A DNA stretch of 64,000 nt from Candidatus Omnitrophota bacterium (lineage in GTDB: Bacteria > Omnitrophota > Gorgyraeia > B26-G9). The DNA is taken from contig JACQZH010000007.1 of NCBI GenBank assembly GCA_016213925.1, positions 30,951 through 94,950 on the forward strand, written 5' to 3'. Shown here one piece after another: positions 21,331 through 59,480 of the stretch. A program made the translations under genes and the position numbers. Under the pieces are notes generated by a model. That model ran no database searches, was not told where the DNA came from, and saw nothing but the letters and a program-made list of their open reading frames with translations. Numbering within the stretch: position 1 is the first letter of the stretch; the number at the start of each line of letters is the position of its first letter.

Positions 21331-21744
21331 ATGGGAAAAAAAGGGTTTACTATAATTGAATTAATGGTCGCAGTGATGATAACTGTGGTTGTTTTAACAG
21401 GGTTGCTGCATATACATACACAAACATTTAGCTTGTATGAAGTATCCAGGAATAAGACGATTGCCGTAAATGCCGCCCGCCAGCAATTAGAAAGAATCCG
21501 TAGCCTGCCGTATGATGATGCCAGCTCTACCAATGATGTTTTAGGCCAAAATGGAATCACATTCCCTGTTGTGCTCTTATCCGGTCCTTTGGGAGCGAAT
21601 CCAGGGAGTATCAGCATTGTAGACGACCCGGATTATCCCGGCGATACTAATATAAGGGAAATTATTGTTGCTGTCAGCTGGATAGCGCAAGGAAAAGTTC
21701 CTGGCGGCAGTATTCAGCTGGTTACTCGAAGGGCGAGATATTAA
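21331..21744 (+). CDS. Prepilin-type N-terminal cleavage/methylation domain protein (PilV/GspI-like minor pilin).
   Basis: MGKKGFTIIELMVAVMI: class III signal peptide with G-F-T-I-I-E. Confidence 0.7.
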   Translation: MGKKGFTIIELMVAVMITVVVLTGLLHIHTQTFSLYEVSRNKTIAVNAARQQLERIRSLPYDDASSTNDVLGQNGITFPVVLLSGPLGANPGSISIVDDPDYPGDTNIREIIVAVSWIAQGKVPGGSIQLVTRRARY

Positions 21745-21750
21745 AAAACC

Positions 21751-22486: not shown

Positions 22487-24184
22487 GTGAAAGCGAAAAA
22501 GAATGGGTCGGTATTAATTTCCGCGCTGATTGTTGCCATAGTTGTTTCAATTGCCGCGGCAAGCATGCTGACGCAGGGGATTGCTTCTAACCGGGTTTCC
22601 GAGCGGGCCGTGGATTCGGCGCAAACATATTATTTAACTGAAGCGGCTATTGAAAGGGCAATCTATGAGCTTAAGTATGGACAAGACATCATTGATGATG
22701 ACGGTAATTCCGGCTCAAACGGCATTCCGGATATATATGAGCAATTGCAGGGGATTAATTCTTTTAATACCGCGGAAGGCGGAGCCGGGCCAATAACCGC
22801 GCCGCCTTTAGCAATGAACTTTACCATTAACGGCCAGGCTGTTAATGTTGAGCTTAGCACAATACTTGTGCCGCATTCTAATTTACTTGAAACGTTTAAC
22901 CCTGCTACTGCTTCCGGCGGTTTTGTCCAGTTTACAGGCGGATGTTACGGAAAACCGCTGTTTTTAGATATCAACGGAGACGGCAACCATGAAATACTTT
23001 TAGGAACGGATGACGGCAATGTGCACTATTATAAATATTATTATGATGAAATAAATAAGCAGTATACGATAGAAGAAGTTTTAGACGCGTTCGGCGATCC
23101 GTTTATCAACGGTTTGGAAGGAAAGATTGTAGGCAGTTTAATCGCGCAGGATATTGATAATGACGGTAATATAAATGTGCTGATAAATACAGACAAAGGG
23201 CATGTATATTGTTATGAAGTAGGCGCTGCTCCGCTTGAACTTCGCTGGGATTATGATGTTCCCGGGGCAAACTCCACTTATTGGGAATTGGCAGTAGGGA
23301 ATTTAGACGGGGATGCTGACCTTGAAATAGTTATGCCTTCAGCTAATAAAGGGCTTACTTTTTTGGATACCAACGGCTCTGTAATCAGAAATATTGCCCC
23401 GACGGGGTTTGGGTATACAGCTCCGCCTTTGATAGGCGATTTTGATAAAGACGGAGTAAACGAGGTTATTGCTGACGACGGAGTAGAGCTGAATTGTTAT
23501 GAGCTGTCCGGAACAAAAAAATGGACATACCGCGTAGGTTTAAAAACCAGTGAAGCTACCGGGGCATTATCGATCGACGGCAGCGGTAAGCATATCGAAG
23601 ATCAAACTTCCAATGGTTTTTGGGTTCCGAGTTCTTCGGCAGGAGATGTGGATGGCGACGGGTTCCCGGAGATCGTGGCTACATCTTTGGGCAACGCTAA
23701 TAACCGCAATACGCATACAGTTATTTTAAGAGATAATAACCGGACTATTGTCGATGCAAAAGATATAAATAAAAACGGTAATAGCACAGAGGTAATTGCC
23801 GTGCCGGATGATATACGCGTAAATTTAACCCCGAGCGCGCTTGCAAACGGCTTTACCGGCGCTGACCTTAGGGGGTTGGTTTCACAGCGTCAGCCTGCGA
23901 TCGGCGACTTAGAAGCGGACGGAAAAGTGGAAATTGCGCATGGAGCGCGCATAGACCAGATTTTTTTATTTAATGTGGATTTTGACAATACTGACGGCGC
24001 GTTTTTAGGAACTGCGGCAACAGAAACTGATGTTGGATGGAATAAGGGCACCTGGGAGATGGTTGATTATACCGGCGATGGGGCAGTAGATTTTCCGGCA
24101 GGGCTTGGCGGCGCCGGCGACATCGCGGCTTCTCCGGTTTTTGCCAATGTTGATAAAGATCAGATCTTAATCAGGACGGCATAG
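22487..24184 (+). CDS. PilX-N-like minor pilin fused to FG-GAP/VCBS beta-propeller repeats, putative pilus-tip adhesin. The reading frame appears to continue in ORF 24196-24402 after a frameshift.
   Basis: N-terminal SVLISALIVAIVVSIAAASMLT (PilX_N-like). Repeated D-x-D/N-x-DG ... E(I/V) FG-GAP motifs (DINGDGNHEIL, DIDNDGNINVL, GDFDKDGVNEVI, GDVDGDGFPEIV, GDLEADGKVEIA). Confidence 0.65.
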   Translation: MKAKKNGSVLISALIVAIVVSIAAASMLTQGIASNRVSERAVDSAQTYYLTEAAIERAIYELKYGQDIIDDDGNSGSNGIPDIYEQLQGINSFNTAEGGAGPITAPPLAMNFTINGQAVNVELSTILVPHSNLLETFNPATASGGFVQFTGGCYGKPLFLDINGDGNHEILLGTDDGNVHYYKYYYDEINKQYTIEEVLDAFGDPFINGLEGKIVGSLIAQDIDNDGNINVLINTDKGHVYCYEVGAAPLELRWDYDVPGANSTYWELAVGNLDGDADLEIVMPSANKGLTFLDTNGSVIRNIAPTGFGYTAPPLIGDFDKDGVNEVIADDGVELNCYELSGTKKWTYRVGLKTSEATGALSIDGSGKHIEDQTSNGFWVPSSSAGDVDGDGFPEIVATSLGNANNRNTHTVILRDNNRTIVDAKDINKNGNSTEVIAVPDDIRVNLTPSALANGFTGADLRGLVSQRQPAIGDLEADGKVEIAHGARIDQIFLFNVDFDNTDGAFLGTAATETDVGWNKGTWEMVDYTGDGAVDFPAGLGGAGDIAASPVFANVDKDQILIRTA

Positions 24185-37998: not shown

Positions 37999-40740
37999 GT
38001 GATTATGCAGACTGTTTCCGGCGATTTTAACCCGTTAGAGAAAATTAGCGAGGCTGTTAGTTTAGGGATGGAAAAATCATCCGACGGGGATGAAGGAAAA
38101 AATTCTTTAGCTGGGTTAACTCCGATGATGAATCAGTATTTGCGCATAAAGCAGGAGCATCAGGACGCTATCCTCTTTTTCCGCCTAGGAGATTTCTATG
38201 AAATGTTTTTTGACGACGCGAAAACAGCGTCCGCAATCTTAAGCCTTACGCTTACGTCCCGTGAAGCGGGGAAGAATAACCGTGTCCCGATGTGCGGGAT
38301 TCCCTTTCATGCCGGTGAAAACTATATCAGCCGCCTTTTGGCAGCAGGCCATAAAGTCGCTATTTGCGAGCAGACAGAAGACCCTAAGCAGGCTAAAGGG
38401 ATAGTTAAGCGGGAGATTGTCCGTATCATAACTGCCGGTACAATGATCAGTCAGAATCTGCTTTCAAAAACGCACAATAATTATTTAATCAGCGTTTACC
38501 GCAAGTCTAATCAGGAATACGGGTTATCCGCGGTAGACCTTTCAACAGGAGAGTTCATGGTAACTGAACTTAAGAGCATGGAAACATTTTTAAGCGAACT
38601 TACCAGGCTTGCTCCGGCAGAAGTGCTGTTTTCGCAATCTGTCATGGCTGATGCGGTTTTTATCGATAAAATCAAACAGCGTTTTAATGCGGCGCTTAGC
38701 GCAATTGAGGATTGGACATTTGATTTTACTTATGGATATGAAAAATTAACTGCGCATTTTAAAGTAAAAAACTTAAACGGATTTGGCTGTGACAATATGC
38801 CTTTGGCAGTTAGCTCTGCTGGCGCGCTGCTAAGGTATCTGGAACAAACCCAGAAAACCCAGATAAGCCACATTACTAAATTGCAGCCGTATTCGCTGAA
38901 TAAATTTATGGTTCTTGACAGCATTGCCCAGCGGACATTAGAACTTGTGCGTTCAGTGCGTAATGATAAGAAATCGACTCTTTTGAACGAACTTGACTTT
39001 ACGCATACTCCGATGGGAGCGAGGCTTATTATTCAGTGGATCCAGCAGCCGCTTTTGGATATCGCGCAGATAAATCAGCGCTTGGATGCTGTGGCGGAAC
39101 TTTTTGATAATCAATCTCTGCGCAATACGTTAAAAGATACGTTTAAGCTGATCGTTGATATTGAAAGATTACTTAGCCGGATAAGCTTAAATGCTGCGAA
39201 TGCCAGGGATGTTTTTACTTTAAATGAGTCTTTGAAAATAATCCCGCGATTGAAAGCGCTTTTAACAGGCAAAAAAAGCCGGTTGTTGGTTGAGATTAAG
39301 GAAAACTTGGTTGATCAAGGCCGGTTATGCGAGTTTTTGGATAAGTCTGTCCGTGACGACGCGCCTTTATCCGTGCGCGAGGGAAGGATGATCCGCGAGG
39401 GAGTTAATGCCGAGCTTGATGAATTGATTAAGCTTACTAAAGGAGGCAGGGACTGGATTGCCAGGCAGCAGCAGAAAGAAATTGAACGCACCGGAATCAA
39501 TTCGCTTAAAATTAAATACAATAGCGTATTTGGTTATTATATTGAAGTGACAAAAACCAACCTGCATTTGGTTCCGGCTGATTATATCCGCAAGCAAACG
39601 CTGGTTAACGCGGAACGGTTTATTACTCCGGAACTGAAAGAGCAGGAGGAAAAAATCCTTTCCGCGCAGGAAAGAATGATTGAGCTTGAATATAAAGTGT
39701 TTATGGATATTTGCCGTAAAATTATGGACAGCCTTGAGCCTATACAGGCAAGCGCGGGAAGCATCGCGCTGCTAGATGTCTTAAACAGCTTTGCTGAAGC
39801 GGCGGCGCGCAATAGATATGCGAGGCCGCAGCTTTACAATGATTCGACAATTAATATTAAGGAAGGCCGACATCCTGTATTGGAAAATCTGCTTAGCGCG
39901 CGGAAGTTTATTCCTAATGATACAGTGCTTGATTCAAGCGGTAACCAGATATTGATTATAACCGGGCCGAATATGGCCGGTAAATCCACTTATATCCGCC
40001 AGGTTGCCTTAACCATTCTTATGGCGCAGATGGGCAGTTTTGTTCCAGCTAAGGAGGCGCATATAGGGATAGTGGACAGGATTTTTACCCGCGTAGGCGC
40101 TGCTGATGATATCAGTGCTGGTATGAGCACGTTTATGATGGAGATGAGTGAAACGGCAAATATATTGAATAACGCGACGTCAAAAAGCATGATAATCCTG
40201 GATGAAATAGGCCGCGGTACAAGTACCTTTGACGGCTTGAGCATTGCCTGGGCAACGGCTGAATTTTTGCATAATAACAAATCGGCAAAACCAAAAACTT
40301 TATTTGCCACACATTATCATGAATTAGCGGAAATGGAAATGCTATTTAACGGAATAAAAAATTATAACATTGCTGTGCGCGAGTGGAACGACGAAGTGGT
40401 GTTTCTTTATAAGCTTATGCCGGGCCAGGCGGACCATTCTTACGGTATCCATGTGGCCCGTTTAGCCGGAATGCCGAAAGAGGTTATTTCGCGCGCGCGT
40501 GAAATTTTAAGCAATCTTGAGATAAACAGCATAACGAATGACGGGATCCCCAGCCTTGTGAAATCAAGCAAAGATAAGAATAAAACAAAAGAGACACAGA
40601 AAGAATTATTCGGCCGGAAGGAAAATCCGCTTTTAAATGAAATAAAAACTTTGGATATCAGCAGGCTTAGCCCGCTTAACGCGTTAAACCTGATCAACGG
40701 CTGGCAGGAGGACTTAAAGGAGCAGGATGGGAAAGATTAA
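37999..40740 (+). CDS. mutS: DNA mismatch repair protein MutS.
   Basis: TPMMNQYLRIK, Walker A GPNMAGKST, and a C-terminal HTH region. Confidence 0.95.
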   Translation: MIMQTVSGDFNPLEKISEAVSLGMEKSSDGDEGKNSLAGLTPMMNQYLRIKQEHQDAILFFRLGDFYEMFFDDAKTASAILSLTLTSREAGKNNRVPMCGIPFHAGENYISRLLAAGHKVAICEQTEDPKQAKGIVKREIVRIITAGTMISQNLLSKTHNNYLISVYRKSNQEYGLSAVDLSTGEFMVTELKSMETFLSELTRLAPAEVLFSQSVMADAVFIDKIKQRFNAALSAIEDWTFDFTYGYEKLTAHFKVKNLNGFGCDNMPLAVSSAGALLRYLEQTQKTQISHITKLQPYSLNKFMVLDSIAQRTLELVRSVRNDKKSTLLNELDFTHTPMGARLIIQWIQQPLLDIAQINQRLDAVAELFDNQSLRNTLKDTFKLIVDIERLLSRISLNAANARDVFTLNESLKIIPRLKALLTGKKSRLLVEIKENLVDQGRLCEFLDKSVRDDAPLSVREGRMIREGVNAELDELIKLTKGGRDWIARQQQKEIERTGINSLKIKYNSVFGYYIEVTKTNLHLVPADYIRKQTLVNAERFITPELKEQEEKILSAQERMIELEYKVFMDICRKIMDSLEPIQASAGSIALLDVLNSFAEAAARNRYARPQLYNDSTINIKEGRHPVLENLLSARKFIPNDTVLDSSGNQILIITGPNMAGKSTYIRQVALTILMAQMGSFVPAKEAHIGIVDRIFTRVGAADDISAGMSTFMMEMSETANILNNATSKSMIILDEIGRGTSTFDGLSIAWATAEFLHNNKSAKPKTLFATHYHELAEMEMLFNGIKNYNIAVREWNDEVVFLYKLMPGQADHSYGIHVARLAGMPKEVISRAREILSNLEINSITNDGIPSLVKSSKDKNKTKETQKELFGRKENPLLNEIKTLDISRLSPLNALNLINGWQEDLKEQDGKD

Positions 40741-42478
40741 GATATTGGCGCAAAATTTAGCTGATAAGATTGCCGCCGGCGAAGTAGTGGAACGGCCGGC
40801 TTCTGTAGTCAAAGAACTGCTTGAGAACGCGCTGGATGCCGGCAGTACGGGCATTGAAATAATCGTGGAAAATGCTGGCTGTACTTTAATTAAAATTATC
40901 GATGACGGCCAGGGCATGGATGCGGAAGATTTGCAAAAAGCGGTACTGCGGCACGCGACAAGCAAAATAAGCGAGGAAAAAGACCTGTTTGGGATTAAAA
41001 CTCTGGGGTTTCGCGGCGAAGCTTTGGCAAGCATTGCCGCGGTAAGTTTTCTTACGATTAATTCCTGCGCTGTTAATGAAAATACCGGATGGCAGATTAG
41101 CATTGAGGGCGGCGCGGTTAAAAAATTTTCCCAAACCGCGCGGACTCAAGGCACAACGGTTGAAGTCAGGAACTTATTTTTTAATACTCCGGCCAGGCTG
41201 AAATTTTTAAAAAGCGACGCTACGGAGATGATTAATATTGTCCGTCAAGTAAGCGAATTAGCTTTAGCCTATCCGGGAGTGTCGTTTAAGCTAGTGCATA
41301 ACAGGGAAGAACTGATAAATTGCGATAGGACGGGTAATTTATTGGAACGGATCAGGGTTTTACTTCCGGAAAAAGTTACCGAGCAGCTTATTCCGGCCGA
41401 ATTTTCCGCGGCCGCTTTAAAAATCAGAGGATTTATTTCTAAAGCCGGAAGCGGTTCGCAAAACCGTAAAAACCAGTATATCTTTGTGAATAACCGCCCG
41501 GTAACCGATAAGACCGTGACGCATGCGCTGATCCAGGGGTATCATGGATTTATTATGGAGAAGCAGTTTCCCTGCGTATTTATTTTTATCAATATTCCGC
41601 TGGATATGGTGGATGTTAATGTGCATCCGAACAAGCGGGAAGTGCGTTTTCGGCAGGCAGCTGCGCTGCACGATATTATTGTAAAGGTTGTGCGGGATGT
41701 TTTGACGGATAAGAATATCCTGCCGCGTTTAGGAAAAGAAAGCGACAACGGACCGGAACAGTTAACTCAAGACGGCATATATAAAAACAATAAACCGTTT
41801 GGCGGGGGATATACGTTTATGTCAGCGCCGCAAAACTCCGGTTATGCGGCAGAAAAAACCGCGCAGCCTTTATTTTGGGGAAAAGATGATTTTTCCGCCA
41901 AAGCGCAAAGCCCGGCATTTCAACAGGCAAATAATACTTATATTATTATTCCGGATGAAAAAGGAGTTTTATTTATAGATCAGCATGCGGCGCATGAACG
42001 GATTATTTTTGATGAGATAAAAAAACAATTTGACCGAAAAAAAGTTGAAAAACAAAAATTACTACTTCCGGTTACGCTGCATCTGGACAGGGAACAAAGC
42101 CTGGTTTTGGAAGAATACAAGGACTTTTTCCAAGCGGCGGGTTTTGAGGTTGAAAATTTCGGCGAGAATACTTATATCGTCAATACTTATCCAAGCGTGC
42201 TGGATAAAGCTGATATTTCCGAACAGCTTGAAAAAATTATTTCCCAGATAGCGGAACTGGAGATCAACCCTAAGGATCAAGCGCAATTTTCCTGGTTTCT
42301 TGCTTCGGTTGCTTGTCATTGCGCTGTACGCGCAAATGAGAAATTATCCCAAGAAAAGGCTGCCGCGCTGATTTCGCGGCTGTGGCAGACAGACGCGCCT
42401 TATACCTGCCCGCACGGCCGTCCTACAATGATAAATATTACCTGGCCTGAACTGGAAAAAAGGTTTAAAAGAAAATGA
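40727..42478 (+). CDS. mutL: DNA mismatch repair protein MutL.
   Basis: GHKL N-terminus (ELLENALDAG, GFRGEAL). Overlaps the mutS stop. Confidence 0.95.
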   Translation: MGKIKILAQNLADKIAAGEVVERPASVVKELLENALDAGSTGIEIIVENAGCTLIKIIDDGQGMDAEDLQKAVLRHATSKISEEKDLFGIKTLGFRGEALASIAAVSFLTINSCAVNENTGWQISIEGGAVKKFSQTARTQGTTVEVRNLFFNTPARLKFLKSDATEMINIVRQVSELALAYPGVSFKLVHNREELINCDRTGNLLERIRVLLPEKVTEQLIPAEFSAAALKIRGFISKAGSGSQNRKNQYIFVNNRPVTDKTVTHALIQGYHGFIMEKQFPCVFIFINIPLDMVDVNVHPNKREVRFRQAAALHDIIVKVVRDVLTDKNILPRLGKESDNGPEQLTQDGIYKNNKPFGGGYTFMSAPQNSGYAAEKTAQPLFWGKDDFSAKAQSPAFQQANNTYIIIPDEKGVLFIDQHAAHERIIFDEIKKQFDRKKVEKQKLLLPVTLHLDREQSLVLEEYKDFFQAAGFEVENFGENTYIVNTYPSVLDKADISEQLEKIISQIAELEINPKDQAQFSWFLASVACHCAVRANEKLSQEKAAALISRLWQTDAPYTCPHGRPTMINITWPELEKRFKRK

Positions 42479-42494
42479 AAGAAGAAGGCCGGTT

Positions 42495-43940
42495 ATGAAA
42501 ATAAAAAAAGAGCTGGCAGTTAACGCGCTGTTTTTAGTAATGGTTATTTTCGGCGGATTTTTTATAACAAAAAAAACAGCATTTTTTTTTGCGCGGCAGG
42601 CCCTAAAAAAACAAAATCAGGGGGATTTTTCCGCGGCAGAGCCGTTATATCTAAGGTCACTCAAACTTTTTCCAATCGCAGAGGCGTATTTTAATTTAGG
42701 GTGTATTTATAAAGACCGCGGAGACTTTGATCAGGCAGTAGCGCAATATAAGCAAGCGTTAAAAATGGCTCCGGGTAATGAAGGGGCTTATGAGGAGTTA
42801 ATTTCAATTTATGAGGAAAACGGCGACGCGCAAACAGCCCAAGCGTACCGGCAAATGCAGGAGCGCAACTGCAAAATAACTTTTGACAACGGGACAAACA
42901 GCGGCGAGGCAGACAAGCAGGAACAGGCAATTATTTTATATAACGAAGCTGTAAAGTTTTTGGAAGCCGGAATAGTTGAGCAAGCGCTGGATAATCTTAA
43001 TAAGGCAATTGCATTACAAAGCTTATTTTGGCAGGCATATTCTTTATCGGCAGATTGTTATATCCGGCAAAATAGGCTCAAAGAAGCGCTTAACAGTTAC
43101 AATAATATTTTACGTTTATCGCCGCAGGACGCGGATATGGCGCGTATTTATAGTAATATGGGTTTTATTTGCATGTGTTTTGAACAGTATGGACGGGCAA
43201 TTCAGTATTTTCAGGCCGCGTATGATTTAGAGCCGGATAATATTGATATTGCTTATAGCCTGGCATCAGTCTTAAGAGATAATCAGCAGGCCGGGCTGGC
43301 TTTAGAGTTTTTTAAACGAATAGAGGTAAAAGCGCCGGATTATCCGGGTCTGCATAATGATTTGGGAGAGATTTATCTATTATCAGGAGAAACTGAATCG
43401 GCGCAGTATGAGTTTCATAAAGAGATAGAACAAGTTAATAAAGATATTTCTGAGAAGAAAGAAAATCCGCTTAACCGGCTGCGGATGGCAAAAGCTTATA
43501 GCGGATTGGGAGAGGATGAAAAAGCGCTGGAGTATATTAATGCCGTGATTCAAGAAAGGCCGAATTATCAGCAGGCGTATTATGTGCGCGCCCAGATAAA
43601 GCGTAAATTGGGATTGCAGAAAGAGGCAGAGGATGATTTGGAAAACGCAAAAACTATTCCTGCTACGCAGCGAATAATACCAGCCGGGGGAAAAATTATA
43701 CGCAGGGCAGATATTAAAAAAATTGTTTCTGAAAATATAAAACAAGTAAGGCAAACAGCCAAGCCTTTGTTTTTGGATAAAGAAGATATAATTATTTATT
43801 TGAAAAATGGGTATACGGTACGCGGTAAGCTTAAAAAAGAAACGGATACGGTTATTACCATAGATATTCCAACAGGAGGTTCTTACGGAACGGTTTCTTT
43901 TAGCAAGAAAAAGATAGAAAAAATTCAAAAAATAAACTAA
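42495..43940 (+). CDS. Membrane-anchored TPR-repeat protein with a distinct C-terminal domain of about 50 aa, also found in the esterase at 48706.
   Basis: Multiple TPR motifs (AYFNLGCIY, AYEELISIYE and others). The C-terminus reads IIYLKNGYTVRGKLKKETD. Confidence 0.7.
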   Translation: MKIKKELAVNALFLVMVIFGGFFITKKTAFFFARQALKKQNQGDFSAAEPLYLRSLKLFPIAEAYFNLGCIYKDRGDFDQAVAQYKQALKMAPGNEGAYEELISIYEENGDAQTAQAYRQMQERNCKITFDNGTNSGEADKQEQAIILYNEAVKFLEAGIVEQALDNLNKAIALQSLFWQAYSLSADCYIRQNRLKEALNSYNNILRLSPQDADMARIYSNMGFICMCFEQYGRAIQYFQAAYDLEPDNIDIAYSLASVLRDNQQAGLALEFFKRIEVKAPDYPGLHNDLGEIYLLSGETESAQYEFHKEIEQVNKDISEKKENPLNRLRMAKAYSGLGEDEKALEYINAVIQERPNYQQAYYVRAQIKRKLGLQKEAEDDLENAKTIPATQRIIPAGGKIIRRADIKKIVSENIKQVRQTAKPLFLDKEDIIIYLKNGYTVRGKLKKETDTVITIDIPTGGSYGTVSFSKKKIEKIQKIN

Positions 43941-44063
43941 GTTTTTCTTTGACTATTGGATACTTGCTGCGGTAAGATTAAAATATTGAGGGAGACCGGA
44001 TTATTAGTTATTTTTGTTTGAATATGCAGTTTTAAAAAGGCCGGATTTATAACGAAAGGAGAG

Positions 44064-44486
44064 TTGATGGAAAACAAGAGAATAGCGTGTGTGGTTTTAT
44101 TTGCTTTGATCGTGTTTTGTCCTGTGCGGGTAGTTGCCGGGGTTATCGGACAAAACGATGATGAAGTACGTTTAGTATGCGACCCGCTTTTAGATAATAT
44201 TTTCACCGGCCTCGACGAGGATAACTATTTCCAGTATTCCCGCGATTTTGATATGTCGCTTAAACAAACACTTTCTACAGGGCGCTTTGAAGAAGTAAGA
44301 ACACAGATTATGAATTGGGCGGGAAATTGTTTATACAGGGAGTATCTAGGTTTTATCAATAGAAAAGCGATAACGATTGTTTTTTGGAAAGGGGTATTTG
44401 ATAAGACTAACGATGATATTTTGATTAAAATGGTTGTTAGCGAAAAAGACGGCAGGTATTTAATTACAGGGCTGTGGTTTCAGTGA
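44064..44486 (+). CDS. Small secreted protein, conserved family (paralog of 48185-48598).
   Basis: Signal peptide. The C-terminal block WKGVFDKTNDDILIKMVVSEKDGRYLITGLWFQ is shared with the paralog. Confidence 0.5.
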   Translation: MMENKRIACVVLFALIVFCPVRVVAGVIGQNDDEVRLVCDPLLDNIFTGLDEDNYFQYSRDFDMSLKQTLSTGRFEEVRTQIMNWAGNCLYREYLGFINRKAITIVFWKGVFDKTNDDILIKMVVSEKDGRYLITGLWFQ

Positions 44487-44643
44487 TAGATGAGTAACCG
44501 GTTGCCAGTAACCAGGCCTCTCAAAAATTTACTTTGGAGTAAATTTTTGAGTTGGAGTCCCCGAAGGGGAAACCAGAGAACAGAAGAAATAGTATTTGAG
44601 AGATATGTTGATTTCCGCAGCGTAGGATAAAACGTAATTTCGC

Positions 44644-45189
44644 ATGAAGAAACAGATTTATGGCATAATAATAGAGTGCAGGGAAGGCAACATTGTTCAA
44701 CAGCCGGATATTAGTGTCATTGTCAATGCCGCTAATGCGCAGCTTGTCCCGGGAGGAGGGGTTGACGGGGCAATTCACAGAGCCGCAGGCTCGGAGCTTG
44801 CTTATGAGAGCAGTAAATTTGCCCCGATTAAACCGGGTGAAGCGGTTATTACTTCAGCGTATAAGTTACCAAATAAATATGTAATTCATTGTTTAGGCCC
44901 TGTATATGGCAAGGATTATCCGGCTGATATTCTGCTTGGGAATTGCTACCGCAATGCATTAGAGTTTGCCGAAACGTATTGCGTAGAGTCGATTGCGTTC
45001 CCTGCGATTTCGACAGGAGCGTTTGCTTATCCAATGGAAGATGCGGCCCGCGTAGCCCTTGGCGCGGTTATTGAAGCGGCAGGGAAATTTCAAAAAGTAA
45101 AATTAGTGCGTTTTGTGCTTTATAAGAGAGAACATCTTAAGGTGCATGAAAAAGTCTTTAGTGAATTGACGAAAAAAATTAAGGCGTGA
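44644..45189 (+). CDS. Macro domain protein (O-acetyl-ADP-ribose deacetylase, YmdB-like).
   Basis: IVNAANAQLVPGGGVDGAIHRAAG macro-domain signature. Confidence 0.85.
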   Translation: MKKQIYGIIIECREGNIVQQPDISVIVNAANAQLVPGGGVDGAIHRAAGSELAYESSKFAPIKPGEAVITSAYKLPNKYVIHCLGPVYGKDYPADILLGNCYRNALEFAETYCVESIAFPAISTGAFAYPMEDAARVALGAVIEAAGKFQKVKLVRFVLYKREHLKVHEKVFSELTKKIKA

Positions 45190-45229
45190 TTTTTAGCTGA
45201 TGGGGCTTAATAAATATTAAGGGAGTAGC

Positions 45230-45763
45230 ATGAAAGTAAATAAAGCGGTTTTTGCCGGGATGTTGTTTGTGATGATATTATCTAATGTTGCGGGCCTAAA
45301 CGCGCAGGAAGACGCGGTTTTATATAATCATGCCAGGCAGGCGGTTTTAAGCGGGGAAATAGATTTTGCGTTCAATTATTTTTATTCGCTGCTGCAGTAT
45401 TCAGCATCGTCAAGATATTATCAAGATGCGGTTTTTGCCTGCGGAGAATATTATTTTTTAAATAATGATTACTATGTCTCCTCAAAGATGTTTACGGATT
45501 TTATTAAGGCTTGCCCGCAATCAGAAGCATTTCCTTTTGCGATTGTTTATTTGAAGAAAATGGCCGCTTCTTTAGAAGAAGCAAACGCGGCATATGATTT
45601 TAAAAAAAACATCATCAAATTTAAACAGTTAAGCCTGCTTTTTAGCGAGTTTAAGGAATATGAATATGTTTCTCCGTTAGGGTTAAAGTACAAAGCGTTA
45701 TATTATATCGACAGAGCGGAATTTTATATAAATGGGGAGCTGTTTGAAAAAGTATATTTCTAA
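45230..45763 (+). CDS. Secreted hypothetical protein.
   Basis: Signal peptide; Tyr/Phe-rich; no motif recognised. Confidence 0.45.
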   Translation: MKVNKAVFAGMLFVMILSNVAGLNAQEDAVLYNHARQAVLSGEIDFAFNYFYSLLQYSASSRYYQDAVFACGEYYFLNNDYYVSSKMFTDFIKACPQSEAFPFAIVYLKKMAASLEEANAAYDFKKNIIKFKQLSLLFSEFKEYEYVSPLGLKYKALYYIDRAEFYINGELFEKVYF

Positions 45764-47837
45764 GCATTTTTTTGTCCGAACGGCAATTGTTATTCTGCTT
45801 GCGCTGGTTATATCAGGTTATTTTTTCGTCAAGGTTTTCTTTTCGGAAAACAAAGCGAAGATAGAATATCTTTCAAGCAGTTATTTAAATAAAAAAATTT
45901 CAATAGGCAGTATTCAATATGTTTTGCCCGCATTCATTGTTATAAAAGACATCAGGATCGGCGAATTCGCAGAACAGGCTGAAGCCATCCCGCTTTCTAT
46001 AAAAAAAATCACCTTGGTTTTTTCATTAGAGAAGTTGTTTGCGGAAAAAGAATTGGTGATCAGCCGTATCGGCCTCTCCGAGCCAGAATTTGATTTGGTT
46101 AGATATCCGCTTTTTTTAAAGGAAAGCATTGCGGGATTTATTAAGTTAATAAATTTTCTTACCCAGGGCAACCCCTTAAAAATAGAATTGGAAAATGCCG
46201 CTTTTATTGCCGGCCACCGAGGGAATAAGCGCACGACGATAATAGCAAATTCAAAAATAGGCATAGGGCCGGACGACCGTTTTTCCAGCCGCGGAATAAT
46301 TAGCGTGCAGCAGGCAGGATGGAACTTTCCCGTCAAAGGGCATAAAATATTTGCGGCTTTTCAGCCTGGCACGTTTAGGTATTCTGTTTATGCTGCGGTT
46401 ATCCCCGAAGGAGTGGTTATTGAGGACATAGCGGTTGAGAAGGATAATCTACAGGCCAAATTTCAGGGCCGGCTTGAGAACAATGTGCTGCGGGTTACAG
46501 GGAATGTTTATTCAGATGATACGCCGGTAAAAACTCAAGAATGGTTAGCTCAAAAAAATAAACTTATAAGGCAGCTTTACGCATTATTTAAATATGGGAA
46601 ATTACCGCAAAAAATCGGACAAAGAGATGCCGGGGTTAACTGCACGGATATTGATTGCGTCCTCGAATTTGCGTCGCGGGCTGTAAATTTAAAAAAAGCT
46701 ACTTTTAATCTTAACGGAATCCCCGTGCTGGTAAATGGAGATTTTAATTTTCAGCAGGGCATGCAGCTTAAGGCCGTAGTTACGACTTTTCCGGAGCAGC
46801 CTTTTTTTGGCGCCGGTACTGATCCGCGCAAACTAGGGTTGGATATTTTTTTAAATGGCAAAGAGGGCAAAAGCACCGGGGACATCACGCTTGATTTTTT
46901 CAAAATGATGGGTAAAAATCTTTCGAAGCAGAAACTGCGGGCTGATTTTAATAACGCGGCTTTTGGCATTTCTCCGGATATGCGGATAAAATTGCTCTTT
47001 GATGAGGCGGTGGTTTTTTATGAATTCGATAAAAATGAGCATGTTTTTAAGCTGCGAAACTGGGAATTGTTATGTAATTTTCTTGACGAAAAACTTAAAT
47101 TCGTAAAATTCAACGCGGGAATTTTTGACGGGCTATTAAAAGGATATATTGTTGTAGATGCTTCAGAGCCCGGGTGGAAAACTAAACAGAATTTAACGGT
47201 AAAAGATGTTAACGCGAGCGAGCTGGATGCGCTGCTTTTATCTTTATTCGGCATGTACCGCACTTTACCGGGAAAATTTCAAGAAAAAATAAGCGGTAAG
47301 TTTACCTGCGATGTTAATTATACAGGGTTTCGCAGCTCAATATTAAACGGGAACCTGGAAATCAGTCAAGGTGTTTTGGAGAATATGCAGTTTTTTTTAT
47401 GGATATCCGGTTTTTTTAATATTCCTTCATTAGCCAGCGTAAGCTTTGATTCTCTTTCTGCAGATTTTCTTGTAACAGACAGGATTGCCCGGCTGGATAA
47501 CGTATGTTTGAGCGGAAAGGATATTTCGCTGAAAGGCCAGCTGGATGTTAGGGATAATGAGCTGATCAGCGGTAGGCTTGCTTTACGGCTTTCGCGCCAG
47601 ATACTTAAAGAATCATCAAAATTTCAGCTGCTTTTGGGGTTGATAAGCCATGATATAAAAGAATTTGATTTTAATTTTCAATTTTCCGGATTATATCAAT
47701 CAATAAATTTTCAATGGCTGGAATCCGAATTTAAGCACAAAGTACAAAAAATGCTTCCCGGGTTTATAGAACAGGGCTTGGAGCGAAAAGTTGAAAGTGC
47801 AATAAAAGAAATTTCCGGGCCGCTTGTTGAAAAATAA
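45732..47837 (+). CDS. Membrane-anchored AsmA-like protein (701 aa).
   Basis: N-terminal signal anchor followed by a long beta-rich region in AsmA/TamB style; low-specificity call. Confidence 0.45.
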   Translation: MGSCLKKYISKHFFVRTAIVILLALVISGYFFVKVFFSENKAKIEYLSSSYLNKKISIGSIQYVLPAFIVIKDIRIGEFAEQAEAIPLSIKKITLVFSLEKLFAEKELVISRIGLSEPEFDLVRYPLFLKESIAGFIKLINFLTQGNPLKIELENAAFIAGHRGNKRTTIIANSKIGIGPDDRFSSRGIISVQQAGWNFPVKGHKIFAAFQPGTFRYSVYAAVIPEGVVIEDIAVEKDNLQAKFQGRLENNVLRVTGNVYSDDTPVKTQEWLAQKNKLIRQLYALFKYGKLPQKIGQRDAGVNCTDIDCVLEFASRAVNLKKATFNLNGIPVLVNGDFNFQQGMQLKAVVTTFPEQPFFGAGTDPRKLGLDIFLNGKEGKSTGDITLDFFKMMGKNLSKQKLRADFNNAAFGISPDMRIKLLFDEAVVFYEFDKNEHVFKLRNWELLCNFLDEKLKFVKFNAGIFDGLLKGYIVVDASEPGWKTKQNLTVKDVNASELDALLLSLFGMYRTLPGKFQEKISGKFTCDVNYTGFRSSILNGNLEISQGVLENMQFFLWISGFFNIPSLASVSFDSLSADFLVTDRIARLDNVCLSGKDISLKGQLDVRDNELISGRLALRLSRQILKESSKFQLLLGLISHDIKEFDFNFQFSGLYQSINFQWLESEFKHKVQKMLPGFIEQGLERKVESAIKEISGPLVEK

Positions 47838-47893
47838 AAATAGCCTGGAATATTTCTTTTTATTTGAAAAAAAAGGTAAATGCGGTGTAAATT

Positions 47894-47939
47894 ATCCCAA
47901 AATTTGCCTGTCTGCCGCCAGGCAGGCAAAATTTGGGAT
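47894..47939. repeat. Palindromic REP-like hairpin element (cccaaaatttgcctg ... caggcaaaatttggg), intact copy.
   Basis: About 15-bp perfect stem read directly; related copies at 49715-49908. Confidence 0.8.
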
Positions 47940-47961
47940 TATGCATGTAAATAGATGAAGA

Positions 47962-48171
47962 ATCCCTTGCTTAAACACCGGTTTACTCGGCAAGCTGCGG
48001 GATTAATTCGCGCAGTAATTTATGTCGCTTATGCTCCATAAAATATGTGCTTGATGTAGGTACTCCGCTTCGTAGCAACGGGCAAATTATCTGTGATAAT
48101 TCGCTCCGTACTCAGCGGAGTTAATTCGTCCCGGCGCTTCGCTTTGCGAAGCAAACGGTCGGGACTCATTA
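47962..48171. repeat. Composite intergenic repeat: module A (47962-48014) and module B (48115-48171) abutting the RBS of 48185. Both modules recur at 51427-51553.
   Basis: Module B is 57 bp and identical at both loci; it contains nested hairpins (gtcccg gc gcttcgc tttgc gcgaagc ... cgggac). Confidence 0.85.
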
Positions 48172-48184
48172 AAAGGAGGAGAGA

Positions 48185-48598
48185 ATGAGGTATTGGAAAG
48201 TATTTATTGTCGGAGTGCTTTTATTAATCAGCCCGGGATTGGTTTTTGCCGGCCAGCGGATTAAGAGAGGAAGAAGCTCGGAAATAAAAGCAGAAAAGAT
48301 ACTCGATAATATTTTATTCGGCTTTAAGTTAGACGATTATAACATTTATGCCCGCGATTTTGATCCGGCTTTAAAAATAAGCGGCGCGCGTACTAAGTTT
48401 TATCATGTAAACAGATATATCAATAGAGTTTTGGGAAGTTATGTTACCCGTGAATACATGGGAAGTTTGCGTAAGGGAGATATTATAATCGTATTGTGGA
48501 AAGGAATATTTGATAAGTCAGAGGAAGATGTTTTGATCAAACTTGTGATGCAGAAGAAAAACAGCCGTTATTATGTCACAGGGCTCTTGCTGCAGTGA
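48185..48598 (+). CDS. Small secreted protein, paralog of 44064-44486.
   Basis: Shared C-terminal block WKGIFDKSEEDVLIKLVMQKKNSRYYVTGLLLQ. Confidence 0.5.
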   Translation: MRYWKVFIVGVLLLISPGLVFAGQRIKRGRSSEIKAEKILDNILFGFKLDDYNIYARDFDPALKISGARTKFYHVNRYINRVLGSYVTREYMGSLRKGDIIIVLWKGIFDKSEEDVLIKLVMQKKNSRYYVTGLLLQ

Positions 48599-48705
48599 GA
48601 ACAGGCAACATGTAAACGCAGAATTTTTTGATATAAAATTACCTAATCAGTTGGCTCTTTTTTGGAAGGATATTTTTAAGGGAGGCTTTCTTTTAATATT
48701 AATCC

Positions 48706-49671
48706 ATGCGAAATAATAAAAAAAATTTAGCAATAACGGCTTTGTCAGTATTGCTAATTTTTTTAGCAGCAAATAAAGGGTTAGGACAAATCAAAGAAGG
48801 CTGCGATAGTATTAGTACGGAGAATTACGCCAATAAAACGCTTGAATACTATTACTATATACCTGAAGCTGTGGCGGGAAATAAAAATGCTTCATATCCC
48901 TTGCTAATAATGGTTCCGGGGCTCTCCGGAAAAGGCGAGTGGTTGGTTAATAATGAAGTTAAAGAATTCGCAGAACGGGAAAAGTTTGTTGTTATCGCGC
49001 CGTCGTTTGTTTTTGATGAGAGAAACTGGGATACGCTAGAAAGCTACCACTATCCGTCAGTTTGGTCCGGCAAGGCGCTTCTTGAGATAATAAGGCAGTT
49101 TGAAGATAAAAATAATCTTTTTTTGTCGAAGTTTTGTCTTTTTGGGCACTCTGCCGGAGCGCAGTTTGTATTGCGGTTTGCGTTATGGAAACCGCAATTA
49201 TGCGAGGCTTGCGCGGCTCATGCAAGCGGAGGAAGCATAAAGCCGATAGAATATGTAAGCGTTAAATTTTTTGTTACGATAGGCAAACAGGATACTTCTT
49301 TAAGAAAAAAAGTCGCCGAAGAATTTTTTGATACTGCAAAGAAAAATATCATCAAAGTTACATATAAGGAATATGATACCGGCCATGACATGATAAAGGA
49401 GCAATTTAGCGATAGTTTGGACTTTTTCACGCAGGGTAAAATGCCTTTTAACGAAAATAGCGGAGTTTTTGAAAGTATTAATCAAAAGGCGGTTTGTGAA
49501 GGTTTTATTGGAGATACTGTGGTTTATTTAAAAAACGGATGCAAGACAGAAGGCAGGTTTAAGAGCGAAACGGATAAAAAAATTATTTTGGAAATCGCTC
49601 TCGGCAGCACAACCGGGCAAATAGCAATTTCTAAAAACCGGGTTAAATCCATAAAAAGATTAGATAAGTGA
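48706..49671 (+). CDS. Secreted alpha/beta-hydrolase (esterase/lipase) carrying the same C-terminal module of about 50 aa as the TPR protein at 42495.
   Basis: Nucleophile elbow GHSAGAQ, signal peptide, and C-terminal VVYLKNGCKTEGRFKSETD. Confidence 0.7.
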   Translation: MRNNKKNLAITALSVLLIFLAANKGLGQIKEGCDSISTENYANKTLEYYYYIPEAVAGNKNASYPLLIMVPGLSGKGEWLVNNEVKEFAEREKFVVIAPSFVFDERNWDTLESYHYPSVWSGKALLEIIRQFEDKNNLFLSKFCLFGHSAGAQFVLRFALWKPQLCEACAAHASGGSIKPIEYVSVKFFVTIGKQDTSLRKKVAEEFFDTAKKNIIKVTYKEYDTGHDMIKEQFSDSLDFFTQGKMPFNENSGVFESINQKAVCEGFIGDTVVYLKNGCKTEGRFKSETDKKIILEIALGSTTGQIAISKNRVKSIKRLDK

Positions 49672-51600: not shown

Positions 51601-52119
51601 ATGGAAATGGCGGTTAGGAAAATTCTTTCGATTCTGGAAGCTAATGAGCTTTTAAGCACAAAGTCAGCGGCAATAAGGCTGGATGATCCGCAGTTGGATG
51701 AGATAATTACGGATTTAAAGGATACCTTACTGGTTACGCCTAACGGGGTGGGGCTGGCCGCGGTACAAATTGGATATTTTAAAAGGGTATTTGTGTTAAA
51801 CGGGGATTATGTGGAAAAAGATTTGGATAAAAGTTCAATTTTTAAAGGCAGCAAGAATAAAATAATTACGTTTATTAATCCAAAAGTTATTTCCGGCAAG
51901 GGAACTGTGCGCGAGGAAGAGGGGTGTTTAAGCGTTCCGGGCTCATATGTAAGTGTTGAACGGCAAAAACTGGTAAAAGTAAAAGCTTTTAATGAAGCCA
52001 AAGAGCAGTTTTATGAGCGTTTTAGCGGATTAGCGGCAAGGGCAATACAGCAGGAAATCGATCATCTTAACGGTATTTTGATTATTGATTATATACGGAA
52101 GAAAGAGGCAGCCAAATGA
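51601..52119 (+). CDS. def: Peptide deformylase family protein with a non-canonical metal-binding motif (QEIDH in place of HEIDH).
   Basis: GLAAVQIG, EGCLSVPG and AIQQEIDHLNG motifs. Confidence 0.8.
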   Translation: MEMAVRKILSILEANELLSTKSAAIRLDDPQLDEIITDLKDTLLVTPNGVGLAAVQIGYFKRVFVLNGDYVEKDLDKSSIFKGSKNKIITFINPKVISGKGTVREEEGCLSVPGSYVSVERQKLVKVKAFNEAKEQFYERFSGLAARAIQQEIDHLNGILIIDYIRKKEAAK

Positions 52120-52922
52120 ATTTAATGAAAAAAAGATATGATTTTGAAGAGTTGTTTAATTTATATAAGAACAGAATTTACCGTTTAGGGTTGAGCGTTA
52201 GCCGTAACGAAAAAGACGCTGAAGATATCCTGCAGAACACATTTTTAAAAATTATACAGCATATTGAGGCATTTAAAAATAAAGCGCATTTATCCACCTG
52301 GATTTACAAAATAGCTTATAACGAAGCGTTGATGCTTTTACGCAAAAAACGCAGGCATTTGAGTCTTGAGGATTCCATTGATTATCAGGCTAAAGCAATC
52401 CCTTCGGGCCTGCTTGTTAATTGGGCGGCTTTTCCGGATCAGCGGTTATTAGAGGAGGAAATGAAAGCAAGGATTGACCGGGCAATTAAACACATGCCGA
52501 TAAAATACAGAATGCCGTTATTGCTGCAGCGAGTTGAAGGCCAGTCCTTAAAAAGCACCGCGGAAATTTTAGGGCTGAAGGAAAATTCCTTAAAGACAAG
52601 ATTGCACCGGGCGAACATGTTTGTTAAAGCGGAGATGGCGCAGTATTTTGAAGGAAAAAAACAATCCGAGGAAGAGCATCACGATGAGCGTTGCCGCGTT
52701 ATAACGGATTTCATTTATGATTATGCGGAAGGAACGCTTAAAAAAGGGAAGAAAATTGCTTTTGAAAAACACATAAATGACTGCGAACCATGCAAAATAT
52801 TTTTAAATGCTTATCAGCGGGCGATTTGCTTTACCAAGGCATTGTATTGCAGAGATTTACCGGAAGAACTACAGGCAAAAATTGAATCATTTATCATGGA
52901 AAAGAAAAAAATATCAATATAG
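52116..52922 (+). CDS. ECF-type sigma-70 factor with a fused C-terminal zf-HC2-like (anti-sigma-type) Cys/His domain.
   Basis: Sigma region 2 (ILQNTFLKI, WIYKIAYN) and region 4 (LKSTAEILGLKENSLKTRLHRA). The C-terminal H-x3-C-x2-C cluster reads HINDCEPCK ... C. Confidence 0.7.
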   Translation: MNLMKKRYDFEELFNLYKNRIYRLGLSVSRNEKDAEDILQNTFLKIIQHIEAFKNKAHLSTWIYKIAYNEALMLLRKKRRHLSLEDSIDYQAKAIPSGLLVNWAAFPDQRLLEEEMKARIDRAIKHMPIKYRMPLLLQRVEGQSLKSTAEILGLKENSLKTRLHRANMFVKAEMAQYFEGKKQSEEEHHDERCRVITDFIYDYAEGTLKKGKKIAFEKHINDCEPCKIFLNAYQRAICFTKALYCRDLPEELQAKIESFIMEKKKISI

Positions 52923-53061
52923 AGTTGTTTTTTAAGCAGGCATTGCTAGGATAATTAAAAACTTGAACAAAGTAACGTATTGGTATATATTAAAGTTAAT
53001 AATTATTTTTACTTCAGCTGTTTAAAAATTAGTTTGGTTTTACGCCAAAGGAGTGAAACAT

Positions 53062-53742
53062 ATGGACCAACGCAGAAAATTTGTACGGCTTGAAACAACA
53101 GGTAAAGTAATATATTCTCTGAAACCAGGCACAACAGAACGAAAAGAAGCAATCCTGCAGGATATAAGTATTTCCGGCGCAAGGGTAATAAGCGATGAAA
53201 TAATCACAACAGACAGAGAGTTCAGCATTATCCTGCAGATTCCCGGAATTAACCACGGGCTTAGCGGAAAGGCAACAGTCAAGTGGCAAAGAAGAATTAC
53301 GGAGCAAATGTTTGATACCGGCATTGAGTTTGTCCATATGCAGGAGGCAGACAGGAAGGCGCTGGTGAGTTTTGTCAGAGAAAGCGCCGGACGAATTGAT
53401 GATCAGAGAAAATACGTGCGTTGTCCGCTGGAAGCGGAGATTAAATACAAATTGTTAAGTCAAGGGAAAGATGTGACAAAAAATTGTAACTCTATTGATA
53501 TAAGTGTTTCAGGCTTGAAATTGTTTATGAAGGAAAAATTGGAAAAAGGCACTCAAATGCGTATTGAATTTAATCTTCCGGGAGAGAAGAATTTAATTGT
53601 CGCGGATTGCGTTGTGGTTGCCTGGTCAAAATCAGCTCCGGAAGAGATGTTTGTTACAGGCGCGGAATTTATTGATATCTCCGAAGAAAACGTTGAGAAA
53701 ATCAGCAAGTATGTAAAAGCTAAACTTGCGATAATTGAGTAA
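53062..53742 (+). CDS. Tandem PilZ-domain protein (two c-di-GMP-binding PilZ domains). Start at ATG 53062, which has an SD AAAGGAG.
   Basis: QRRKFVRLE ... DISISGARV and DQRKYVRCP ... DISVSGLKL (RxxxR + D-x-S-x-GG patterns). Confidence 0.7.
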   Translation: MDQRRKFVRLETTGKVIYSLKPGTTERKEAILQDISISGARVISDEIITTDREFSIILQIPGINHGLSGKATVKWQRRITEQMFDTGIEFVHMQEADRKALVSFVRESAGRIDDQRKYVRCPLEAEIKYKLLSQGKDVTKNCNSIDISVSGLKLFMKEKLEKGTQMRIEFNLPGEKNLIVADCVVVAWSKSAPEEMFVTGAEFIDISEENVEKISKYVKAKLAIIE

Positions 53743-54977: not shown

Positions 54978-55185
54978 AAAGAAAGGAAAACTCTGGACAT
55001 GGGAATGACAAGCGCGGTAAAAATACTTGTAGTGATTTGGACTCTTGTGGGCGTGGGGCTTTGTTTTTATCTGATAGGTTTTCCTGTTTTTATGAAAAAA
55101 AATATCGCGGTTATAGTTAGCCTGCTTGAGCGCATACTGGAAAATTTGGAAAAAAATAAATAAAATAGAAAAAAGAGATAGGACA

Positions 55186-55875
55186 ATGGAAGAAAAGAGA
55201 AAATTTACCCGTATTCAAGCTCTAAAAGAAGTGCGTTATAAGCACAAGGAGAGTAAAGACCTTATGGCTACTGTTCCGGTAAGAGATCTTAGCCTTATCG
55301 GGATCAGCATATACGCGCAGCGTAAATTTGATAGGGGGGAAAAACTGGAACTGGACATAACATTCCCCGGAGAGTCATTGCCGACGAGAGTAAGCGGAGA
55401 AGTCAGGTGGCAGTTAACCGATGAAGATAATAACTTTATAACCGGAGTGAGGTTTTTTGGCGTTGATGATGACGCGCAAAAACGGCTGACTAATTTTATA
55501 GACAAACATATATCCAGCAATGTTGAGCACAGGACTGCTGTGCGGTGCAAGCTGGAAGTTGAGGTTCAGTACGCTTTGCTTGAGAGCCCGGGAAAAACAT
55601 ATACAGCAAAAGCTGTGGACATAAGTAAGGGCGGAATGCGTATCAGGGTAAAGGAAAGAATTGAAAAAGGGCAATATTTAAAATTAAACCTTAGGCTCCC
55701 GAGTTATACTGATATAATGCAGATTGAAGGCAAAATTGTCTGGCTGCGCCCAGGCGATAGCGTTTACAAACAGGAAGCGGGAATAATTTTTTCGCAAATT
55801 TCCGATTTGGATAAAAAACTGATTTTGAGGTTTGTTGAAAGACAGTGCGAAAAAGAATTAAAAAGGAGCAATTAG
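55186..55875 (+). CDS. Tandem PilZ-domain protein (paralog of 53062). Start set at the internal ATG 55186.
   Basis: EKRKFTRIQ ... DLSLIGISI and EHRTAVRCK ... DISKGGMRI. Confidence 0.7.
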   Translation: MEEKRKFTRIQALKEVRYKHKESKDLMATVPVRDLSLIGISIYAQRKFDRGEKLELDITFPGESLPTRVSGEVRWQLTDEDNNFITGVRFFGVDDDAQKRLTNFIDKHISSNVEHRTAVRCKLEVEVQYALLESPGKTYTAKAVDISKGGMRIRVKERIEKGQYLKLNLRLPSYTDIMQIEGKIVWLRPGDSVYKQEAGIIFSQISDLDKKLILRFVERQCEKELKRSN

Positions 55876-59087: not shown

Positions 59088-59480
59088 TTGACAGACGAAC
59101 GCAGGAAAAATCGTAGAGTAATTCAAGGCCATGAGATAAGCTTTCTGATTATTGACAAAACAAACCCGGGAAAACTTTCCGCTAAAGATGTGTTGGTTTT
59201 TCGCCAGGCGCTGCTTTTGGATGTTTCTTCGACAGGCTTGAGCATAGAGACAGAAGAATTAAACGAACAATGGATCCCTTTTTTTGAGTCAGGGGAGTTT
59301 CTTGTCGGGGTTTGTATTCAGCTTGTAAGCGGCGCGGAACCGGTTTGCGCGCTTACCAAAACAATGTGGATAAAAGATTCTGCTTCAAAAAGAAGGACGC
59401 AAATACTGGGTTTGAAGCTTATTAACATCAGCAGCGTAGATATGATAAAAATCAGGAATATTATAATCAGACATGGCTAA
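59088..59480 (+). CDS. Single PilZ-domain protein.
   Basis: RRKNRRV ... DVSSTGLSI. Confidence 0.55.
   Translation: MTDERRKNRRVIQGHEISFLIIDKTNPGKLSAKDVLVFRQALLLDVSSTGLSIETEELNEQWIPFFESGEFLVGVCIQLVSGAEPVCALTKTMWIKDSASKRRTQILGLKLINISSVDMIKIRNIIIRHG

Follow-up and report, generated by a model that had tools for sequence, protein, structure and literature searches.

A common C-terminal module, predicted to fold as an Sm/Hfq-like small beta-barrel, on two otherwise unrelated Omnitrophota proteins

A tetratricopeptide repeat (TPR) protein of 481 amino acids (aa) and a serine esterase of 321 aa, encoded at positions 42495..43940 (+) and 48706..49671 (+), respectively, of a 64-kb stretch of DNA from a Candidatus Omnitrophota bacterium (positions 30,951 to 94,950 of contig JACQZH010000007.1, assembly GCA_016213925.1; the whole stretch of 64,000 nucleotides is referred to below as the window), carry the same module of ∼50 residues at their C termini. 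Structural models show this module as an autonomous five-strand small beta-barrel of the Sm/Hfq-like (SH3-like) type. We lean towards reading it as an appended extracytoplasmic tethering or binding domain that would hold its cargo by a common ligand.

The presence of a common C-terminal module on these two proteins was proposed in a first-pass annotation that relied on the letters of the sequence, and it is borne out; the open reading frames (ORFs) and both C-terminal peptides quoted there are present in the sequence exactly. In a BLASTP comparison of the whole proteins, residues 431-481 of the TPR protein (module copy 1; 43785..43937, +) align with residues 270-320 of the esterase (module copy 2; 49513..49665, +; 106.5 bits with a hidden Markov model [HMM]) with 18 identical residues of 51 (35%), 65% positives, and an E value of 7e-10. 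The alignment is ungapped, as had been claimed, and the claimed identity of ∼40% over 49 residues was slightly overstated. All other segments of the two proteins gave E values of 14 or higher, so the remainders of the TPR protein and the hydrolase are unrelated. The Smith-Waterman score of the segment pair is 110, compared to 24.9 ± 4.9 (maximum, 53) in 5,000 shuffles (z = 17); the likeness, which might have disappeared in a proper pairwise alignment, thus persists. The module signature can be written as [DT]-[IV]-[IV]-Y-L-K-N-G-R-x-[IM]-x-G-[RK]-[IL]-K-x-E-T-D...G-x-[ST]-x-G-T-[IV]-[TS]-[FL]-x-[KR]-x-x-I-x-x-I. A search of the six-frame translation with a 2-sequence HMM revealed only these two copies within the window. 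A recent duplication or a DNA repeat was ruled out as the origin of the likeness by the codon-aligned nucleotide identity of the two copies, which is 52%, and by their common words of just 8 to 13 nucleotides, so that the copies must be old.

Modeled alone with AlphaFold2 (AF2), the module folds into five strands with a predicted local distance difference test (pLDDT) score of 91.7. The AF2 model of the full-length esterase is confident for two parts, the catalytic domain (residues 30-242) and the module (residues 270-320); the module again comprises five strands (residues 271-318, high pLDDT), and the 25 residues ahead of it are disordered. The combination of a confident module with a disordered linker (residues 247-264) points to an independently folding, tethered domain. 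The predicted barrel shows the strongly bent five-strand arrangement of the Sm, LSm, and Hfq proteins, and in both models it begins at the beta1 strand, without the N-terminal alpha-helix of Sm/Hfq. The nearest solved structure, on which the module can be superposed, is the nose domain of Kustd1711 (PDB 7ZS0), which is inserted in a cytochrome c domain. Kustd1711 is an exported diheme cytochrome c of Kuenenia stuttgartiensis, and its nose, which is Hfq-like and has five strands, is inserted into the C-terminal cytochrome domain (PMC11791136). Both window proteins are devoid of cytochrome domains and of CxxCH motifs.

The view that the module belongs to no known family holds in part. Scans of Pfam and NCBIfam returned no model at its curated cutoff, so a match to a common known domain, which would have spoken against the proposal, was not found; still, the predicted fold is Sm/Hfq-like, and several models match consistently below their thresholds. 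In family-model scans that covered 74 module sequences, such subthreshold matches were seen for NF041881 (PTPDL family) in 67 sequences, for NF047433 (LA_0442/LA_0875 N-terminal domain) in 64, for NF047624 (LIC_13076 family) in 60, and for NF047503 (LB_137 family) in 40, with best E values of these four models from 3e-9 to 1e-5. The best match to NF047433 has an E value of 3.2e-9, and the members shown individually score 26.5 to 34.8 bits; the TPR copy from the window falls short of the 43-bit cutoff at 21.8 bits (E = 1.1e-4). TIGR02603 (putative heme-binding domain) matches 44 of the 74 sequences, also below the threshold (for the window copy, E = 0.021 and 14.8 bits versus a cutoff of 68). 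These matches cover model positions ∼62 to 105, in agreement with the weak HMM match to residues 250-287 of 7zs0 and with the nose insertion of planctomycete-type cytochromes. The 7zs0 sequence match (E = 0.81) is not significant alone, and three module profiles searched against the PDB sequences gave no significant match.

Weak Pfam matches among the 74 members were to the RimP C-terminal SH3 domain (26 members), Hfq (24), and LSM (14). The Sm/LSm/Hfq models (PF01423, PF17209, and TIGR02383) stayed below their cutoffs, with best E values of 2.7e-4 for Hfq and 0.01 for LSM, and they did not match the window copies at E values up to 10 or 1. DUF6897 (PF21838; threshold, 23.9 bits) was matched by a single member of the 74 and, in the window, by the TPR copy only, at 18.0 and 17.3 bits. 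Models for SH3b, LysM, carbohydrate-binding modules (CBMs), and the substrate-binding domain of polyhydroxyalkanoate (PHA) depolymerases are absent from the module matches listed for the window copy and for the 25 families matched by most members, even at E values of 1 to 10. Word-indexed protein searches with module alignments returned nothing, as the domain is too short and diverged for seeding with 5-mers at a database size of 5.8e9. A literature search on the names of the related NCBIfam families found no functional study.

When 1.84 billion representative proteins were searched by HMMER with the 2-sequence profile, 84 matches were obtained at E values up to 1e-3, of which ∼75 remained as true relatives after the removal of 9 repeat-protein false positives. 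All named sources of the carriers are Candidatus Omnitrophica/Omnitrophota or "PVC group" metagenome-assembled genomes. A profile search of contigs with a 10-sequence alignment found 2 loci only, so the taxonomic spread is poorly sampled. The carriers comprise orthologs of the TPR protein (461 to 510 aa), orthologs of the esterase (310 to 340 aa), fragments, and more distant proteins with an N-terminal module (N-type). In the C-type TPR orthologs, the module ends 0 to 10 residues from the C terminus; in the distant N-type carriers, it opens the mature N terminus right behind the signal peptide ("...A|D-T-[IV]-Y-L-K-N-G"). When these relatives are pooled with the esterase homologs, 66 copies are C-terminal, 22 are N-terminal (20 of them behind a clear signal peptide), and 3 are internal second copies, so the module is not always found at the C terminus of signal-peptide proteins, as the first-pass annotation had thought it might be. 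TPR-like proteins carry 56 of the 66 C-type copies, and the N-type carriers include retropepsin-like aspartic proteases (TIGR02281), TPR proteins, and an Hvo_1808-like surface protein. The C-type and N-type profiles are homologous (hhalign probability, 99.5%; E = 3.7e-22), with a beta3-beta4 hairpin that is ∼4 residues shorter in the N-type.

Given the Hfq-like fold and the basic character of both window copies (net charges of +4 and +6), the module could be a cytoplasmic nucleic-acid-binding domain similar to Hfq. However, almost all full-length carriers have a signal peptide or an N-terminal anchor, in 20 proteins the module starts right behind the predicted signal-peptide cleavage site, and the nearest solved relative sits in an exported cytochrome, which makes this assignment hardly credible.

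The esterase is identical (100%) to P0085, [quoted passage not shown] Its signal peptide region, residues 1 to ∼28 (MRNNKKNLAITALSVLLIFLAANKGLGQ; 48706..48789, +), can be recognized in the sequence and in the AF2 model, where the N terminus forms one helix (residues 4-23); the orthologs have AxA-type signal peptides, and cleavage probably occurs after approximately residue 28. The alpha/beta-hydrolase catalytic domain (residues 30-242; 48793..49431, +), modeled mostly at pLDDT values of >90, has a putative catalytic triad of S149, D196, and H227, with the serine in a GHSAG motif. Across 40 homologs, no variation is seen at G147, S149, A150, G151, or H227, and D196 shows a conservation of at least 90%. 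Between this domain and the module lies a flexible linker (residues 243-268; 49432..49509, +) with no secondary structure and with pLDDT values of <50 at residues 247-249 and 252-264. A Foldseek search with the AF2 model retrieved PahZ1, a feruloyl esterase, CE1, and esterase D at E values of ∼1e-11, so the modeled structure resembles polymer-type esterases; the NCBIfam model NF050058 (PHA depolymerase catalytic domain type 1) matches below its cutoff with an E value of 6.9e-10.

A search with the esterase retrieved 91 homologs. The module HMM finds 73 of them to be without the module; these proteins, of ∼240 to 280 aa, come from Chloroflexota, Aminicenantia, and Omnitrophota, and some carry the source names PHB depolymerase or predicted esterase. 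Among those with the module, 10 have it at the C terminus and 6 at the N terminus, directly behind the signal peptide. Thus, within a single catalytic family the module is gained or lost, is attached through a linker, and is independent of position. The C-terminal modules of the esterases are 42% alike among themselves and 36% alike to the TPR modules; because of this slightly closer mutual likeness, the esterase-module fusion appears to be old and inherited along with the esterase. Such an enzyme might use the module to bind its own polymer, as PHA depolymerases do with their substrate-binding domains, in which case the copy on the TPR protein would be an unrelated reuse. This proposal draws on the subthreshold similarity to the type 1 PHA depolymerase catalytic domain and the resemblance to polymer esterases, on homologs named poly(3-hydroxybutyrate) depolymerase in their sources, and on the fusion of the module at both ends within the esterase family. 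We consider it rather improbable, since most carriers are not esterases (the C-type copies are found predominantly on TPR-like proteins, and the N-type ones on proteases and others) and the large majority of the esterase homologs do without the module.

In the metagenomic contig L003, an ortholog of the esterase with its module follows, after a 2-nucleotide gap, a 732-aa ORF (149-2347, +) whose translation reads like an acyl-CoA/acyl carrier protein synthetase fused to an acyltransferase. This arrangement may hint that the esterase could act on lipids.

The occurrence of the same domain at either end of one enzyme family is how an appended binding or adaptor module would behave, and it is the decisive argument against a C-terminal sorting or secretion signal, comparable to the C-terminal domain of the type IX secretion system (T9SS), to PEP-CTERM/exosortase, or to LPXTG/sortase. 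In the closest subfamily, 66 proteins do carry the module within 0 to 10 residues of the C terminus on cargo with signal peptides, the pattern expected of such a signal. However, the homologous domain is found at the mature N terminus of 22 proteins, including 6 esterase homologs, and also inserted within a cytochrome; in the models, the segment forms a compact barrel that does not end in a hydrophobic or charged tail; and it is matched by none of the Pfam and NCBIfam models of the T9SS C-terminal domain, PEP-CTERM, or sortase signals. A sortase-like or secretion component that might co-occur with the module was sought in the 64-kb window, which encodes no sortase, exosortase, rhombosortase, or T9SS gene; a pair of pseudopilin-like genes are the sole secretion- or pilus-type genes seen there. 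The sorting reading is therefore very improbable and, like that of a cytoplasmic RNA-binding domain, is disfavored. Of the original suggestion of a sorting, anchoring, or surface-binding module, binding or anchoring survives as the best reading, whereas C-terminal sorting of the Por/T9SS kind does not.

The TPR protein, which is identical to P0001 of the protein library searched, consists of an N-terminal hydrophobic anchor, ∼9 TPR repeats (Pfam TPR_1/2/8/11/12/16/19, with E values down to 1e-29), a linker of ∼45 aa, and the C-terminal module. Its hydrophobic segment (residues 8-25 as read from the translation, AVNALFLVMVIFGGFFIT; 42516..42569, +) is probably a signal anchor rather than a cleaved signal peptide, and we infer the topology of the protein from it. 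A hydrophobic N terminus is seen in 43 of the 66 C-type carriers, TPR orthologs included, and the remainder are mostly fragments. The proposal that both window proteins are exported is consistent with these features: the hydrolase and its orthologs have typical Sec signal peptides, and the TPR protein has an anchor-like N-terminal segment. In the metagenomic protein P0027 (346 aa), an N-terminal part visibly unrelated to the TPR protein precedes the final TPR repeat and the module; P0027 could be a true new fusion or a chimera of the assembly.

In Omnitrophota/PVC genomes, the module has become joined through flexible linkers to either terminus of exported proteins, and subthreshold model matches suggest the same joining in Leptospira- and Planctomycete-type proteins. 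The cargo includes a TPR scaffold that is anchored in the membrane and encoded in a conserved envelope-gene cluster, a serine esterase of the polymer type, and retropepsin-like aspartic proteases. Under the tethering reading, the module would, once exported by the Sec pathway, bind a shared extracytoplasmic ligand, which would be a polymer of the envelope or surface or else a partner protein, and the bound module would keep the catalytic or scaffold part in place. It would work in the manner of SH3b, LysM, CBM, and PHA-depolymerase substrate-binding domains and would not be read as a recognition signal by a secretion or sorting machine. The basic charge of both window copies, together with a family median pI of 9.2, hints at an anionic ligand.

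Several points weigh against this reading. We infer both the binding by the module and the identity of the bound partner. The net charge ranges from -7 to +8 across the family and is positive in just 68% of the members, and such uneven charge weakens the case for a single common anionic ligand. The number of carriers, obtained with a 2-sequence profile, is a lower bound, and many of the carriers are metagenomic fragments. Sm-like barrels often act through the formation of rings rather than by monomeric ligand binding. In addition, the nose domain of Kustd1711 has been assigned no function and is acidic, unlike Hfq (PMC11791136).

The main rival to tethering is accordingly oligomerization of the Sm type, in which edge pairing of beta4 with beta5 would join barrels into pairs or rings and thereby multimerize their periplasmic cargo (TPR scaffold, esterase, or protease). 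We regard this as a minority possibility: the modeled module starts at beta1 and has no Sm/Hfq N-terminal alpha-helix, and the paper on Kustd1711, a three-domain protein, presents the nose as an inserted domain and mentions no ring (PMC11791136). A broader proposal, and a speculative one that we hold to be doubtful, is that the YLKNG barrel represents an unrecognized, widespread extracytoplasmic branch of the Sm-like superfamily that serves as a shared localization tag or as a building unit for assemblies, through one specific envelope ligand or through Sm-type rings. It would cover periplasmic and surface proteins of Omnitrophota, Leptospira, and Planctomycetota, including anammoxosome cytochromes, and, if true, would amount to a new principle of protein localization in poorly studied diderm lineages.

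The TPR gene belongs to a conserved gene order, glycogen phosphorylase, flavin mononucleotide (FMN) reductase, mutS, mutL, TPR-module, and DUF3887-like A, seen in the window and in the loci L001, L006, and L007-L009; TPR orthologs of ∼463 to 472 aa show this conserved synteny downstream of mutS-mutL. DUF3887-like A is a small exported protein of 140 aa, encoded directly 3' of the TPR gene (44064..44486, +) and identified by a weak DUF3887 match; its adjacency to the TPR gene is kept in all of these loci. Next in the window, L001, and L006 come genes for a BamD/YfiO-like protein (177 aa) and a membrane-anchored protein of approximately 700 aa (701 aa in the window), which occupy positions 45230..47837 (+) and overlap by 32 nucleotides. 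The former matches TIGR03302 below the threshold (E = 5.7e-6); the AsmA/YhdP-like label of the latter comes solely from a weak match of its N terminus to Pfam YhdP (E = 0.034), and it has no PDB sequence match. Both labels are weak and are compatible with an envelope biogenesis cluster. The string of genes from mutS to the membrane protein spans positions 37999-47837 (+), so that mismatch repair genes lie beside an envelope-looking cluster. A macro-domain protein (44644-45189, +; Pfam Macro, E = 4e-38) is encoded between DUF3887-like A and the BamD-like gene and is not found at this spot in L001 or L006; it looks like a lineage-specific insertion.

DUF3887-like B, a likewise exported 137-aa paralog (38% identical to A; E = 4e-29), follows this cluster in the window and in L006 and is encoded directly 5' of the esterase in the window (48185..48598, +). 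Its ortholog in L006 is 58% identical and has no esterase behind it. The esterase adjoins the cluster in the window only, and its orthologs in L003 and L004 sit elsewhere, with other neighbors. A general role of the DUF3887-like proteins as dedicated partners of the module was therefore rejected.

Elsewhere in the window, the pseudopilin-like pair is encoded by neighboring genes (21331-22434, +), and both proteins bear a prepilin-type methylation motif at the N terminus; an FG-GAP repeat protein is encoded behind them (22487-24184). Downstream of the esterase, a 268-aa ORF (52116-52922, +) combines regions 2 and 4 of an extracytoplasmic function (ECF) sigma-70 factor with a zf-HC2 anti-sigma zinc finger and is apparently either a sigma/anti-sigma fusion or the product of a missed frameshift or stop. 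Three PilZ-domain proteins, two of them with a double PilZ, are encoded within 7 kb (53053-53742, 55126-55875, and 59088-59480, +), which suggests a dense content of cyclic di-GMP effectors. Among the few minus-strand genes of the window are a 986-aa ORF with no Pfam match (6650-9610, -) and its neighbor (6184-6648, -), which encodes a small protein that weakly matches heme-binding models (two matches of the CxxCH type). Nearly all long ORFs of the window (1-64000) are on the plus strand, the GC skew is positive in each 2-kb bin, and the cumulative skew rises monotonically, indicating strong gene co-orientation on one replichore.

The recurrence of the module on exported enzymes, proteases, and a TPR scaffold from an envelope-gene cluster points to a common location or ligand, in a lineage that is uncultivated and whose envelope biology is barely known. 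Neither the fold nor the architectural logic is new; appended small beta-barrels are common on secreted proteins. What is new is the sequence family, which is uncurated in Pfam and is approached just by subthreshold NCBIfam models that carry no function; the alignment could seed a new Pfam-type family of ∼50 residues. It also provides the first comparative context for the nose domain of the anammox cytochrome and for several NCBIfam families that exist by name only. The Omnitrophota envelope proteins, these named families, and the anammox nose domain probably constitute one branch of a superfamily.

Among the known systems, NF047433, NF041881, NF047624, and NF047503 apparently describe the same "DTxYLKNG...G.I..ET" barrel, mostly in an N-terminal position behind the signal peptide. 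These models are named for uncharacterized proteins, NF047433, NF047624, and NF047503 after locus tags of Leptospira. The two window copies differ from them in being C-terminal (including with respect to the N-terminal site that defines NF047433), in having a beta3-beta4 hairpin that is ∼4 residues longer, and in scoring far below the cutoffs. The nose of Kustd1711 is an acidic insertion within a cytochrome c domain, whereas the window copies are basic and sit at a terminus, tethered by linkers. Compared to the Sm/LSm/Hfq proteins (PF01423 and PF17209), the module lacks the N-terminal helix, is extracytoplasmic, and is appended to enzymes instead of being a stand-alone ring subunit. The T9SS C-terminal domain shares with the closest subfamily its C-terminal site on signal-peptide proteins but differs from the module in fold and size, and the module is also found in N-terminal and internal positions. 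The closest parallel in architecture is offered by the SH3b, LysM, CBM, and PHA-depolymerase substrate-binding domains, which are likewise small, autonomous, linked flexibly to either terminus of secreted cargo, and present or absent within one catalytic family; with no sequence match between them and the module, this likeness is one of functional analogy only.

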